A DNA stretch of 64,000 nt from a virus (IMGVR_UViG_3300034069_002177:64001-128000); one strand, 5' to 3'; counted from the first letter of the stretch, positions 899-17,840 are shown. Notes: generated by a model not told the origin, from the letters alone. Made by a program: numbers and translations.

Positions 899-971
899 AG
901 GGATGTAGCTCAATTGGTAGAGCAACGGTCTCCAAAACCGTATGTTGCAGGTTCAAGTCCTGTCATCCCTG
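899..971 (+). tRNA. trnW: tRNA-Trp(CCA)
   Basis: Full cloverleaf; acceptor AGGGATG/CATCCCT; loop CT-CCA-AA. Confidence 0.95.
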
Positions 972-1217
972 CAAAGCCTTTCATCGGAGGAAACGTTGAT
1001 GATGAAGGGTCCGCGAGTAGAAATACTCATTGGAAACTACACAGTGGATAAAGAAAGGGGATAGGTTGCCAAACCTATCCCACCCCTTGTCGTAAAAATC
1101 ACGAACTCTTCGGAGGTCGGGAGGAACAACAAGGTGTGATGAGGGCGGCAATCAACATGCCGTCGTATAGCCTCACGGCTCAAAACGAAGGACTTGATTG
1201 TCGTTCTCATCAGTAAT

Positions 1218-1299
1218 GGTAGTTTAGTCAAGTGGTCAACGACACCGCGCTGTAAACGCGACGGCTAAGCCTTCGGGAGTTCGAATCTCTCAACTACCA
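1218..1299 (+). tRNA. trnY: tRNA-Tyr(GTA)
   Basis: Cloverleaf with long variable arm; loop CT-GTA-AA. Confidence 0.93.
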
Positions 1300-1395
1300 C
1301 ATCTTTGCTAGTCACTCCAGTGGTGAGAAACTAGTCGTAGCGAACACTCGCGTCAAGGTTCGAAGTAGGTAAGGTCGCTCCTTATCTGCGTGCAT

Positions 1396-1478
1396 GGCGC
1401 ATTGCCCGAGTGGTCAAAGGGATCTGACTGTAAATCAGCCGCAAATATGCTACGGGAGTTCGAATCTCTCATGCGCCA
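1396..1478 (+). tRNA. trnY: tRNA-Tyr(GTA)
   Basis: Cloverleaf with long variable arm; loop CT-GTA-AA. Confidence 0.95.
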
Positions 1479-1520
1479 CAGTTCATAACGAACTAGTAGT
1501 AAGCAACACAGTTTCACCAT

Positions 1521-1592
1521 GCCTTTATAGCTGAGATGGTTTAGCAATCGGCTCTTAACCGATGGACGCGGGTTCGAATCCCTCTGGGGGCA
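1521..1592 (+). tRNA. trnK: tRNA-Lys(CTT)
   Basis: ATCGG-CT-CTT-AA-CCGAT; acceptor with 3 G-U pairs, one T-stem mismatch. Confidence 0.85.
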
Positions 1593-1718
1593 CATGTCGT
1601 TGTGGCGGGTAGCGCAAACCGAAGTACAAGGTAAGCGTCCAAAGCATGAAGGGTAACAGTCAAGCGCCGTGGCAAGGTGTGCTAGCAACCGTGAAGGTTG
1701 TAATGGCTTGACAAGCTT

Positions 1719-1792
1719 GGTTCTATAGCTCAGATGGTTAGAGCGCCGCCCTGTCACGGCGGAGGTCGCCGGTTCAAGTCCGGTTAGGATCG
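1719..1792 (+). tRNA. trnD: tRNA-Asp(GTC)
   Basis: Cloverleaf; CCGCC-CT-GTC-AC-GGCGG. Confidence 0.95.
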
Positions 1793-1889
1793 CGATGTAG
1801 CCGACAATATTCATCATCCTGCGAGACCTTTTATCGAAGGCGGTAGTGAGGCTTGAATGCGGACTTTCCTTCCGTACATCAAAGGATAT

Positions 1890-1962
1890 TCCTCTATAGC
1901 TCAATTGGCAGAGCATCTCACTGTTAATGAGACGGTTCGTGGTTCGAGTCCACGTGGGGGAG
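1890..1962 (+). tRNA. trnN: tRNA-Asn(GTT)
   Basis: Cloverleaf; U1-A72; loop CT-GTT-AA. Confidence 0.95.
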
Positions 1963-2064
1963 CAGTAATTCCGAGTCTGTGAGACTCGGGGTGAAACGAT
2001 GGTTAGGCTTTGGTATCGCTTCTCACAGGGGCGGTTGAAGGCTGTTCACATCCATAAAAAGAAC

Positions 2065-2135
2065 AGGGGTAATAGCTCAACGGTTAGAGCGCTCATCCGA
2101 GTGATGAGAGAAGCTGTTCAAATCAGCGAATCCTA
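2065..2135 (+). ncRNA. degenerate tRNA-like element (loop CC-GAG-TG)
   Basis: Canonical D arm TAGCTCAACGGTTAGAGC, AC stem CTCAT/ATGAG, T loop TTCAAAT; poor acceptor pairing; C33. Confidence 0.5.
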
Positions 2136-2308
2136 CAAAGCCTAAGATGGAAGGCGCTGCAAAGACTGTGCGGAGGTACCCCAAACAGAAACTAGCAATG
2201 TTGGAAGTTATGGCTTCGGGTTAGCATAAACCAGAATGCGGCGTGGGAGCGTGTATGGAACCGTGGTAGGTTCTACCCGATGTAAGAGGGAGGGAGAAAT
2301 CCTCACCC

Positions 2309-2380
2309 GACGAGATGGGCTAATTGGTCAGCCAGCGGACCTAATATCCGTGCATGGGAGTTCGAGCCTCCTTCTTGTCA
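2309..2380 (+). ncRNA. non-canonical tRNA (loop CC-TAA-TA, isotype undetermined)
   Basis: Fully paired acceptor GACGAGA/TCTTGTC, D stem GGCT/AGCC, AC stem GCGGA/TCCGT, T stem GGGAG/CTCCT; C33 and T37. Confidence 0.7.
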
Positions 2381-2386
2381 AAACAT

Positions 2387-2461
2387 GTCTGTGTAGCTCA
2401 GTCGGTTTAGAGTGCCACCCTGTCAAGGTGGAAGTCGCGGGTTCAAGTCCCGTCACAGTCG
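2387..2461 (+). tRNA. trnD: tRNA-Asp(GTC)
   Basis: Cloverleaf; loop CT-GTC-AA; one acceptor mismatch. Confidence 0.9.
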
Positions 2462-2844
2462 CAAGCAATTTGAAGGAGGTTAGCTTAGAAGTAGCAATCC
2501 TTTAAAGAGTGACGAGCGGCAATAAGCGTGATGGTGATAGCCGCACCCGATGCCTGAGTGAGAGTAAAGCTCAGGGGTTGCTAGAATAAGAACAAAGTCG
2601 AAATCCATCAGGAGTAGACGGAGTGAAGCGGGCGGTCCCTGCGTTCTGGATATACAAGGGTCAGAGTCTTTGGTGTAGTAACACACTTCTTTTTGCCTAA
2701 TGTTGTGGTATGAATTCCGACGACAAAACCTCGGATGGCAACTGAGTTCTAGACTCAGAGCAGTGATTCGAACACTGCACCACGACCCAACTTTACTGGT
2801 GTCAGTCCCAGTAAAAGGTCGCCGTAACCACTCGGTGACCATCT

Positions 2845-15757: not shown

Positions 15758-15829
15758 GCCACTTTAGCTCAGGGGTAGAGCAAACGCTTCGTAAGCGTTA
15801 GGTCGTCAGTTCAAATCTGACAAGTGGCT
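15758..15829 (+). tRNA. trnT: tRNA-Thr(CGT)
   Basis: Loop TT-CGT-AA. Confidence 0.95.
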
Positions 15830-16089
15830 CGGAATCGGGAACAAGGTCTCTCGGTAACGGACAGGTACAAAACGAGAACCCAGTGCACATGGACTCGCAC
15901 AAAATCCTGTTACCGTTTCGGTGTCCGTCTTCTTACGTTTTCGGGCACCGAACATTCTTCGAGGTTCAGCACTCGACGTATTTCATCTCAGGATACGGTA
16001 CGATACCAAAGGCTGGTCGGAGGTACACCGAAGGTAATCTGTTAGTGCAGATGATCAACCATGCACAGCGCGGAGTGATTCGCGTTTGT

Positions 16090-16161
16090 GCCTCTTTAGC
16101 TCAGTGGTAGAGCACTTCCTTGGTAAGGAAGAGGTCGAGAGTTCAATTCTCTCAAGAGGCT
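16090..16161 (+). tRNA. trnT: tRNA-Thr(GGT)
   Basis: Loop TT-GGT-AA. Confidence 0.96.
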
Positions 16162-16197
16162 CGTAAAGACTGCTACGGTAGTTATTCACGAAAATAT

Positions 16198-16273
16198 GGG
16201 TTCTTAGCTCAGTTGGTAGAGCATCACGCTGGCAGCGTGAGGGTCAGGGGTTCGAATCCCCTAGGATCCACCA
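16198..16273 (+). tRNA. trnA: tRNA-Ala(GGC)
   Basis: G3-U70; loop CT-GGC-AG; CCA encoded. Confidence 0.95.
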
Positions 16274-16302
16274 TATAGACACCTTGACGAAACGGACCAA
16301 AG

Positions 16303-16776
16303 TTGACCGAGCTAGTAATCGCTCCAATGAATGTCGAAGATATTCAGTCCGTTATCGACCATGTAACCAATGTATCCCTAGCTTCGTCGCATCTCGACCA
16401 CCCCAATATCGGTGCATGGCTTGAAGGTGAATACAATCCTGCTGATGTACTCGCAAAGCTTGATTCGAGCATCTGTCTCATTGTGAGAGATAACGAGCAC
16501 ATTGTCGGTACCGGATTCATCGATACGACAACTGGCTACATTTCGGGTGTCTATGTCTCCAATAAGGGACACGGTACTGGTCGTTTGATTGTCGATAGGT
16601 TGCTTGAAGAAGCAGCAGCAGAGGCTGGTACGAAACACTTCACTGCGAGTGTTCATCCTGACTCGAAAGCCATGCAGCACATTCTTTCAACGTCTGGTTT
16701 CACGGCAACGCATGTGGACCCTCACGTTGTTTACTATGTTGGTACCGACTTCATGATTTGGGAAAAGTCGGTATAG
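16303..16776 (+). CDS. GNAT family N-acetyltransferase
   Basis: beta4/alpha3 acetyl-CoA motif VYVSNKGHGTGRLIVDRLL; C-terminal AMQHILSTSGF. Confidence 0.8.
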   Translation: MTELVIAPMNVEDIQSVIDHVTNVSLASSHLDHPNIGAWLEGEYNPADVLAKLDSSICLIVRDNEHIVGTGFIDTTTGYISGVYVSNKGHGTGRLIVDRLLEEAAAEAGTKHFTASVHPDSKAMQHILSTSGFTATHVDPHVVYYVGTDFMIWEKSV

Positions 16777-16782
16777 CAACAC

Positions 16783-16854
16783 GCCTCGTTAGTTCAGCGG
16801 AAGAATGCCTCTTTCCTAAAGAGTTGGTCGCTGGTTCGAATCCAGTACGGGGCA
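16783..16854 (+). tRNA. trnR: tRNA-Arg(CCT)
   Basis: Loop TT-CCT-AA. Confidence 0.9.
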
Positions 16855-17209
16855 CTGGGAAAACACCAACAGATTCGATTAGTCATCGAGGAACTAAGTT
16901 GGTGAGGGTGGTCGTTCACCGTGAAAAGAACGATGTCTGGTGATGTAGACGAGGTACCTAGCCTGAATCACAAGCGGATGAGACGGTTAGCTGGTTGGTG
17001 GACGCTCGATAAGGGTGGTTTCCGTACTCGCTGATTTGTGGGGTATAGATTCCGAATACTGCGACCCATCGTGGAAGACAACAAGCGGCTTGACTGGTCG
17101 CCCAAGTGACAAGTGTGGTGGAAATCCACTAGTAATCAAGAGCGTGGTACAGGGATCATAACCCTGCCTCCGTGAAGGTTTTAAGCCGGAGCGGCTTGGT
17201 TGCGATTTA

Positions 17210-17283
17210 CGGAGTATGGGAAAATTTGGCAATCCGCGCCGTTCGGGACGGCGAGAATGAGGGTTCAAATCCCTCTACTCCGA
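17210..17283 (+). tRNA. trnP: tRNA-Pro(CGG)
   Basis: C1-G72; loop TT-CGG-GA. Confidence 0.92.
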
Positions 17284-17377
17284 CATGGGGCGAGTGAGTC
17301 CGCGAAACCTTGGTGTTGACAACACAAGTAGACGTGGGCGCGGTCGCGTGTTTTCTCGACACCCTGTATCGTCAAAT

Positions 17378-17634
17378 GCAGTAGGGTTGAGGAACAGAAA
17401 TGCGGGCAGCAATGTGCCGCTACCGTAGGTCGAGACTACGGCGCTCCACCAAACTTTTGACACAGATTGGTCAACCCCGGCGCTTTAGGGGCTGAGAACG
17501 GCTCACAGAGCCAGTGGTCGTGGGCGAAGCGTGAAGGCATCCTGGGTAAGTCCTTCCGGCAAGCTACCAACGCGAATTCTGAGGTTCATGTCTTGGAAGT
17601 GCTGGGGACGTGGGTTCGATTCCCACCGACTGCA
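17378..17634 (+). ncRNA. large structured RNA closed by a tRNA/tmRNA-like acceptor and T arm
   Basis: GCAGTAG pairs (6/7) with CGACTGC-A after GGGGAC-GTGGG-TTCGATT-CCCAC; internal hairpins such as CCGTAG/CTACGG. Confidence 0.4.
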
Positions 17635-17660
17635 CAACGTCAGCAATGCGCTGACCGTAT

Positions 17661-17734
17661 GGTGTTCGTAGCTCAATTGGCAGAGCGGCAGGTCGTGAAC
17701 CTGTTCGTTGCGGGTTCAAGTCCCGTCGTCCACC
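17661..17734 (+). tRNA. atypical tRNA-His-like (loop TC-GTG-AA)
   Basis: G-1/C73, canonical D and T arms, C33, two acceptor mismatches. Confidence 0.65.
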
Positions 17735-17766
17735 TGAAACGATACCCTTATCGTCAAAAGGAATAA

Positions 17767-17840
17767 CAGGATGTAGCGCAGTTTGGTAGCGCGCCAGTTC
17801 GGGGAACTGGAGGTCGCGGGTTCAAACCCCGCCATCCTGA
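17767..17840 (+). tRNA. trnP: tRNA-Pro(GGG), C33 variant
   Basis: C1-G72; CCAGT-TC-GGG-GA-ACTGG. Confidence 0.85.

Follow-up and report, generated by a model that had tools for sequence, protein, structure and literature searches.

The cas operon and the guide array

The 64,000-nt window analyzed here, bases 64001-128000 of the 202,737-bp virus record IMGVR_UViG_3300034069_002177 (DNA from a plant metagenome), contains a type I-E CRISPR operon at 50277-57760, with cas3, cas8e, cas7, cas5, and cas6e, and a large cluster of transfer RNA (tRNA) genes. Inside that cluster, between the genes for tRNA-Val(GAC) and tRNA-Asp and 38 kb from the cas genes, lies an array of five short guides set among degenerate hairpin repeats, and a sixth guide forms a lone unit after cas6e (table 1). 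All six guides are hard-wired in the phage genome. Array and lone unit are conserved, structured, and non-coding and are tied to a set of effector and nuclease genes that is apparently intact. Four of the guides have matches among the tRNA genes of the probable host order.

Cas3 has the Pfam domains Cas3_HD, DEAD, and Cas3_C. Aligned to the type I-E Cas3 structures 4q2c and 4qqw, it retains the HD, Walker A (GxGKT), and DEVH (DExH) motifs, and the nuclease/helicase looks active. The other proteins match PF09481 (Cas8e), PF09344 (Cas7), PF09704 (Cas5e), and PF08798 (Cas6e), with E values of 1e-38 to 1e-86. No separate cas11 (cse2) gene lies between cas8e and cas7; the C-terminus of Cas8e has a weak match to Cse2 (E 0.035), and Cas11 may be fused into the C-terminal extension of Cas8e. 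The system is a type I-E derivative that departs from its family in three features: absence of cas1 and cas2, absence of a separate cas11, and spacers of 19 nt, not 32 nt.

Homologues of Cas7 (52-76% identity) are present on other large metagenomic contigs with the same gene neighborhood. Two relatives were informative, designated A (L056) and B (L037). An RtcB protein with 87% identity led to the tRNA cluster of relative A, whose contig ends in cas5. Both relatives have kept a Cas3 of 977-983 amino acids with unchanged domains. Neither cas1 nor cas2 was found within 10 kb on either side of cas7 in the called-gene lists of this phage and relative B, and the scanned proteins of the window and the called-gene lists flanking cas7 included no transposase family; in both cases the rest of the 202-kb genome was left unscanned. 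No close relatives were recovered from the cultured-phage collection or in scans of viral contigs, where a pattern of three GGATGWWCC anchors returned only five unrelated coding micro-repeats, and a BNR protein was too variable for tracing relatives.

Repeat finders detected no canonical CRISPR array, whether run on the window or on the entire 202-kb genome, and Tandem Repeats Finder reported only 2.2 copies at the array. The motif GGATG(A/T)(A/T)CC nevertheless recurs at 12272, 12320, 12368, 12416, and 12464, a period of 48 nt. Periods of 47-48 nt with repeats of 28-29 nt leave guides of 19-20 nt, and the guides are 19 nt long when defined with an 8-nt handle as in Escherichia coli. Taken together, the two arrays and the units next to cas6e in this phage and in relative B comprise 17 repeats, of which 16 form a tetraloop hairpin with its last base abutting TG(A/T)(A/T)CC. 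The stems vary in sequence (for example, TCCCTAC/GTAGGGA, TCCTCAG/CTGAGGA, and CCTCGG/CCGGGG). The repeats, otherwise degenerate, follow the type I-E layout, in which a Cas6e hairpin precedes the 5' handle. Handle position -1 faces G53 of the target, and its base is G, A, or T and never C in 13 of 13 units (12281, 12329, 12377, 12425, 12473, and 57790 in the window; L056 2092-2329 in relative A; L037 in relative B), a pattern with a chance of about 2%. A promoter-like site on the + strand (12529-12558; TTGACA, 18 nt, TAAAGT; 10 of 12 matches) comes directly after the array and before tRNA-Asp, and TTGACA is also present at 12245-12250, just 5' of the array.

The array and the lone unit share the 10-mer GGGATGTTCC, which has only two copies in the 202-kb genome, one at the array head and one 20 nt past the cas6e stop codon. 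An outer stem (57756-57769 with 57834-57847) encloses the lone unit, and its two strands have changed in a compensatory way between this phage (GATTGGGGTGC / GCACTCCAATC) and relative B (GATTGAGACACT / AGTGTCTCAATC; L037 about 12425-12520); it may be a processing or terminator structure. In relative B, the cas6e-adjacent guide is conserved at 17 of 19 positions despite differing flanks. The array of relative A is syntenic, also between tRNA-Val(GAC) and tRNA-Asp, with anchors 47, 48, 48, and 47 nt apart. A repeat protein encoded by a 93-amino-acid frame (12274-12555) was considered and rejected, as the units differ from one another about equally at first, second, and third codon positions (76/63/66). 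The array is not coding, because the spacing of 47 or 48 nt in relative A is accompanied by stops in all three frames.

tRNA-gene targets of the guides

The probable host group is Micrococcales, based on RtcB, which has its closest cellular homologues in Arthrobacter (71-74%) and Curtobacterium (about 69%), and on Cas7, which has actinobacterial proteins as its nearest cellular relatives. A Cas7 search of genome contigs returned only Gammaproteobacteria with 30-37% identity and was uninformative on the host. Genomes of the GTDB order containing Arthrobacter mobilis (Actinomycetales) were searched for targets. In what follows, read positions are 16 of the 19 guide bases; positions 6, 12, and 18 are those unread by type I-E Cascade. 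The complete genome of the best class for guide W1, designated G003 (2.28 Mb, 46 tRNAs), was scanned on both strands.

Guides match bacterial tRNA genes far beyond chance. With its reverse complement plus GTTC as the query, up to three mismatches allowed, and no masking, W1 matched 115 of 301 genomes versus 1 for the reversed control, and every match was in tRNA-Ala(CGC). In the best class, mismatches are only at tRNA positions 35 and 41, which correspond to guide positions 18 and 12. Likewise, W6 differs from tRNA-Glu(TTC) of G003 exactly at positions 6, 12, and 18 and matches both tRNA-Glu(CTC) genes at 15 of 16 read positions. When unread positions were masked, W6 had perfect targets in 17 of 61 genomes (control, 0) and W4 had 15/16 targets in 36 of 61 (control, 0), always with one mismatch distal to the protospacer adjacent motif (PAM), at tRNA position 37. 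Under the same masking, W5 matched 16/16 in genome G007 and 15/16 in 7 more of 151 genomes, with 1 control match. The full W6 pattern that includes tRNA position 32 gave nothing at three or fewer mismatches because a fourth mismatch falls at that position.

Within G003, the tRNA matches of W1, W4, and W6 are the top matches; the random expectation is about 0.001 sites at 16/16, and the random sites next in rank get no further than 14/16. By unmasked identity, the matches of W1 and W6 are the unique maxima of the genome. The same three guides also jointly match genomes G016, G040, and G061.

The distribution of mismatches follows the six-nucleotide periodicity of Cascade. Of the six possible 6-nt masking phases, only 6/12/18 yields tRNA matches in G003, and the other five yield none. 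For the guides whose assignment did not depend on masking, three in number, 7 of the 8 mismatches are at positions 6, 12, or 18 (binomial P about 2e-5, by our own arithmetic), and unread positions are mismatched in about three-quarters of cases. The pattern is as would be expected if unread positions drift freely and read positions are held by selection; for the flipping out of every sixth guide base, it is a signature of an evolutionary kind only. In the relative B guide, one change of the two is at unread position 18.

Every tRNA target is flanked by 5'-AAC, a constancy that arises because AAC is the complement of the universal T-loop bases G53-T54-T55. In the place where the PAM lies, the array itself has CC plus one base. 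The last guide of relative A is the homologue of W1, and by eye it fits tRNA-Thr(CGT) of G007 at 15 of 16 read positions. This suggests that guide slots can be retargeted between tRNAs by point mutation, with Ala(CGC) matched by W1 and Thr(CGT) by its homologue. For W3, the best match of the reverse complement in Arthrobacter mobilis is in a coding region and not in a tRNA gene.

Table 1. Features of the guide system and the tRNA cluster, in window coordinates
Feature	Position	Strand	Basis
Cluster of 64 tRNA genes and tmRNA	899..17841	+	ARAGORN, Rfam, anticodon tally
tmRNA, tag peptide ANASRNDFALAA	4525..4916	+	ARAGORN; Rfam RF00023, 127 bits
Compact RNase P-like RNA, 243 nt, sub-threshold	10342..10584	+	RF00010, 84.9 bits vs cutoff 100, E 2e-27
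CRISPR-like array, six degenerate hairpin repeats and five 19-nt guides	12253..12521	+	Sequence, syntenic homologue in relative A, hairpins
Guide W1, antisense to tRNA-Ala(CGC) 34-52	12282..12300	+	16/16 read positions, unique genome-wide best in G003
Guide W2, best candidate tRNA-Pro(GGG) 14/16	12330..12348	+	By-eye comparison with tRNA lists
Guide W3, tRNA-like, nearest tRNA-His(GTG) about 15/19	12378..12396	+	Sequence comparison
Guide W4, antisense to tRNA-Arg(ACG)	12426..12444	+	15/16 read positions, top match in G003
Guide W5, antisense to tRNA-Val(CAC)	12474..12492	+	16/16 read positions in G007
RtcB RNA ligase, just downstream of tRNA cluster	20147..21493	+	Pfam PF01139, E 2e-120
cas3 (HD nuclease and helicase)	50277..53210	+	Pfam; alignment to type I-E Cas3 structures 4q2c/4qqw
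cas8e (cse1), 684 aa, long C-terminal extension	53207..55261	+	Pfam Cse1 on residues 5-451
cas7 (cse4)	55263..56381	+	Pfam, E 2e-86
cas5e	56385..57128	+	Pfam
cas6e	57125..57760	+	Pfam PF08798
Single CRISPR RNA unit after cas6e: hairpin and handle, guide, second hairpin	57762..57838 (outer stem 57756-57847)	+	Sequence, relative B, hairpins
Guide W6, antisense to tRNA-Glu(TTC/CTC) 33-52	57791..57809	+	16/16 read positions in G003

The tRNA set of the phage and its neighbors

The tRNA genes of the phage contrast with those of the host lineage in their relation to the guides. Own tRNAs have at least three read-position mismatches to the guides, and tRNAs of the candidate host lineage have 0-1. Own tRNA genes carry the AAC flank, like the targets, and should be spared because of these mismatches, which are often in the seed. 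Throughout the 202,737-bp genome, no site exceeds 13 of 16 read positions for any guide; self-regulation through matches in the phage genome was rejected, none being above background. The phage lacks genes for Ala(CGC) and Val(CAC), and its Glu tRNAs have a 5-nt variable loop versus 4 nt in the targeted type. An earlier note on this stretch, made from the sequence alone, had claimed that no own tRNA fully matches any spacer, and the systematic alignment bears this out. Its individual comparisons, made to spacers it called S1, S4, and S5, were all reproduced: of the own tRNAs, Ala(GGC) at 16198 comes nearest to S1, its seed being intact and its read positions having four mismatches; two Ala(TGC) genes have G48, and the third has A52 versus S1; both Arg(ACG) genes have C48 versus T48 of S4 and further differences at tRNA positions 42 and 43; and Val(TAC) at 9974 differs from S5 at tRNA positions 45, 39, and 34.

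Compared with G003 tRNAs of the same anticodon, own tRNAs have an identity of 71% within the 19-nt target window and of 73% outside it. General divergence alone predicts about five mismatches and hence the same escape, and the mismatch of own tRNAs does not demonstrably exceed chance. Two own Asp(GTC) genes (1719 and 12627) are 95% identical to those of G003 inside the target window and 84-86% outside, and own tRNA-Phe(GAA) (11058-11131) is 98-100% identical to Phe of G003, with which it shares an unusual GGATCGA T loop. The latter suggests a recent capture from the host lineage. None of the guides is aimed at Phe or Asp. In addition, own tRNA-Phe(GAA) is without the GTT from which an AAC flank would arise.

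In total, ARAGORN identified 64 tRNA genes and one transfer-messenger RNA (tmRNA), all on the + strand, in keeping with the roughly 60 tRNAs for all 20 amino acids of the earlier note. Rfam agrees with this set and adds one weak, odd tRNA-like gene at 2066-2135 (33.5 bits), which it alone detects. There are 41 anticodons for 20 of 20 amino acids. By standard wobble rules, worked by hand, 61 of 61 sense codons are read, provided that one of four CAT tRNAs is tRNA-Ile2. Two other tRNA-like genes, at 8172-8247 and 13161-13232, are odd; one is low-scoring with anticodon ATG (34.6 bits), and the other has a two-base anticodon call. Between tRNA-Arg(ACG) and tRNA-Leu(CAG) is an RNA that would be an unusually compact, phage-borne RNase P RNA.

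Genes directly 3' of cas6e have no Pfam match or only ArdC-like matches. An ArdC-like anti-restriction/metallopeptidase protein is encoded at 59480-60523, 1.7 kb after cas6e, and relative A has a DruA-family gene (L056 16952-17695) near its RNase H gene. The record is labeled a provirus in IMG/VR, with an estimated completeness of 96%. Proteins of the record are also on file from a 654,127-bp contig, whose sampled context is phage-like and not bacterial. That contig encodes paralogues of the BNR protein (17954-19537) that are missing from the 202-kb record. A much larger element or a chimeric assembly may underlie the provirus label.

Proposed mode of action, alternatives, and implications

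We consider it probable that the locus encodes hard-wired guides that direct a short Cascade to host tRNA genes and spare the tRNAs of the phage. Cas6e would cut at the base of the repeat hairpin and release a CRISPR RNA (crRNA) of about 48 nt, predicted to consist of an 8-nt handle, ATG(A/T)(A/T)CC and one further base, followed by a guide of 19 nt and a hairpin at the 3' end. An RNA of this kind would suit a Cascade that contains about four Cas7 subunits, not six. By sequence comparison, the assigned guides are antisense to tRNA positions 34-52 (33-52 for the Glu guide) and pair with the sense strand of the genes over the stretch between anticodon and T stem. Cascade would bind the host genes for Ala(CGC), Arg(ACG), Val(CAC), and Glu(TTC/CTC), and probably others. 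The apparently active Cas3, once recruited, would nick the host chromosome and degrade it, starting at several loci, or at the least the genes would be blocked. The phage tRNA set, tmRNA, and RNase P-like RNA would, speculatively, sustain translation; that these phage RNAs would make up for lost host functions is a plausible idea, weakened by the stability of mature tRNAs. No sequences in a chromosome are more conserved or more dispersed than tRNA genes, so a phage unable to acquire spacers keeps valid targets across many hosts.

The earlier note had read the tRNA set as one side of a poison-and-antidote takeover of translation. Parts of that reading stand: guides match tRNA genes of the probable host order and not those of the phage, Cas3 has its motifs, and a tmRNA and a sub-threshold RNase P-like RNA are present. 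Cutting or silencing of host tRNA genes, a fall of host tRNA pools during infection, and substitution by the phage tRNAs are inferred steps. Selection on own tRNAs for escape is not supported, given 71% versus 73% identity.

Several observations weigh against the explanation we favor. Mature tRNAs are stable, so translation need not run short during a single infection cycle even when their genes are destroyed. Large tRNA sets are also a common feature of huge phages that have no such arrays. The divergence of own tRNAs is not concentrated in the target window; the contrast with host tRNAs is real but is no proof of design. Among the genomes sampled, none is matched by all guides. The masked search with W2 gave no target at one or fewer read mismatches in 101 genomes, W3 gave none at that threshold in the genomes sampled, and G003 offers no target for the majority of the relative A guides. 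It is from its constancy that AAC would be the working PAM of this Cas8e, and the match behind a fusion of Cas8e and Cas11 is weak (E 0.035). Finally, at 19 nt the guides are at or just below the length for interference in E. coli, so binding without cutting is possible.

The borderline guide length makes binding without cutting the main rival. The shortened Cascade would block transcription of tRNA genes, and a 19-nt R-loop would not license Cas3, which would be left idle or put to another use. In E. coli, spacers longer than 20 nt still interfere and that length is needed for interference, and shorter spacers, including those of 14 nt, still prime or engage targets (PMC5159557). Repression has also been proposed for some host-targeting phage spacers (Al-Shayeb et al., PMC7162821). 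However, the Cas3 encoded here has all catalytic motifs and is kept in relatives A and B, which implies selection for activity, and silencing of stable-RNA genes has little short-term effect. We regard binding alone as unlikely, though it deserves serious consideration.

Competition among mobile elements is improbable. Most phage-borne arrays and mini-arrays target other viruses (PMC11656645, PMC7162821), and the 3' part of tRNA genes is often duplicated by integrative elements, so that the targets could be host-like tRNA genes or 3' halves on rival phages, satellites, or integrative elements with tRNA genes as insertion sites, and matches to the chromosome would be tolerated or a side effect. 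But chromosomal tRNA genes are matched perfectly at read positions in many genomes, and the host would be struck anyway. A rival element with these sequences was not found, and none was looked for.

Action on RNA is more improbable still. Guides are complementary to tRNA, including the anticodon, and an RtcB gene adjoins the cluster, which would suit antisense guides, free or within Cascade, that pair with host tRNAs or their precursors to sequester them, mark them, or shield them from anticodon nucleases. Against this, type I effectors act on double-stranded DNA, mismatches are in the 6-nt phase of Cascade, a DNA-type AAC flank is present at every target, and folded, modified tRNA pairs poorly. 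Hardly credible is the absence of any functional array, with a decaying tandem repeat, a tRNA-derived pseudogene cluster, or a 16-residue repeat protein in its place: its support (a unit of 48 nt, or 16 codons, an ATG frame that spans the array, and degenerate repeats missed by standard finders) is already contradicted by the even codon-position differences, the uneven spacing and interrupted frames of relative A, the hairpins retained with altered stems, and the conservation of read positions next to randomized unread ones.

The hard-wired guide system that we favor shares features with known systems and differs from each. Huge phages have adaptation-less CRISPR systems with compact arrays, and some spacers target host transcription or translation genes of which the phage carries its own copy, as for sigma-70 (PMC7162821). 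Like those systems, the one described here is in a large phage with many tRNAs, lacks cas1, cas2, and cas4, and has a compact array (Al-Shayeb et al. 2020, PMC7162821). Unlike in those systems, all assigned guides are on tRNA genes in one fixed register with a T-loop-derived flank and are 19 nt long, repeats are conserved in structure and not in sequence, and the array is within a tRNA cluster remote from the cas genes. The type I-F system of Vibrio phage ICP1 (Seed et al. 2013, as described in PMC7162821) is likewise a type I system of a lytic phage that directs a Cas3-type nuclease to DNA in the host cell. As that source describes it, however, ICP1 has cas1 and cas2-3, acquires spacers of normal length, and targets an anti-phage island. 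CRISPR-associated transposons, to the extent covered by PMC11656645 (its refs 47 and 48), are similar in off-locus guides, partly matching repeats, short spacers, and use of tRNA-gene sites. According to the same account, they are without Cas3, carry transposase genes, and direct Tn7-like transposition, whereas here Cas3 is intact and several tRNA genes are targeted. A further parallel is E. coli Cascade with shortened spacers (Kuznedelov et al. 2016, PMC5159557), in which shorter crRNAs are bound by fewer Cas7 subunits and targets are still recognized; length changes in 6-nt steps, and 32 minus 12, or about 20, fits the guides found here. That construct was made in the laboratory, whereas the short form here is apparently natural, possibly with Cas11 fused to Cas8e.

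The tRNA cluster resembles those of jumbo phages and actinobacteriophages, in which dozens of tRNAs, a tmRNA, and RtcB occur together. The usual explanations for such clusters are codon usage, shut-off of the host, or evasion of anticodon nucleases. We know of no phage tRNA cluster that contains guides against host tRNA genes, and a full-text literature search turned up no phage array described as targeting tRNA genes themselves. The unit after cas6e is reminiscent of CreA/CreR, single spacer-like sequences between degenerate repeats beside cas genes. Cre RNAs match a promoter of their own locus and act by partial pairing, whereas W6 is unmatched within the phage genome and agrees with tRNA-Glu genes at every read position.

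Adaptation-less, phage-borne CRISPR systems are common in huge phages, and most of their targets are unclear. Fixed guides against the most conserved host genes offer, for one lineage, a testable answer as to what such systems target. The conservation of read positions next to randomized positions 6, 12, and 18 is natural evidence for how Cascade reads its guide, and the guides show what appears to be a type I-E complex with an about 19-nt guide kept by selection. A short natural type I guide is also of interest for compact type I genome tools, and phage guides may provide a new route to host prediction. In addition, the association suggests a reason beyond codon usage for phages to carry full tRNA sets. 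Tentatively, and with more doubt than we attach to the guide system itself, the locus could be a weapon of new design, in which a natural mini-Cascade uses the universal T loop as its PAM and destroys chromosomes across a broad order, a complete set of guide-resistant tRNAs, with a tmRNA and an RNase P-like RNA, takes over, and point mutations retarget the guides. If true, the weapon would find any host in a broad bacterial order without spacer acquisition, and translation by the phage would outlast the genes of its host.

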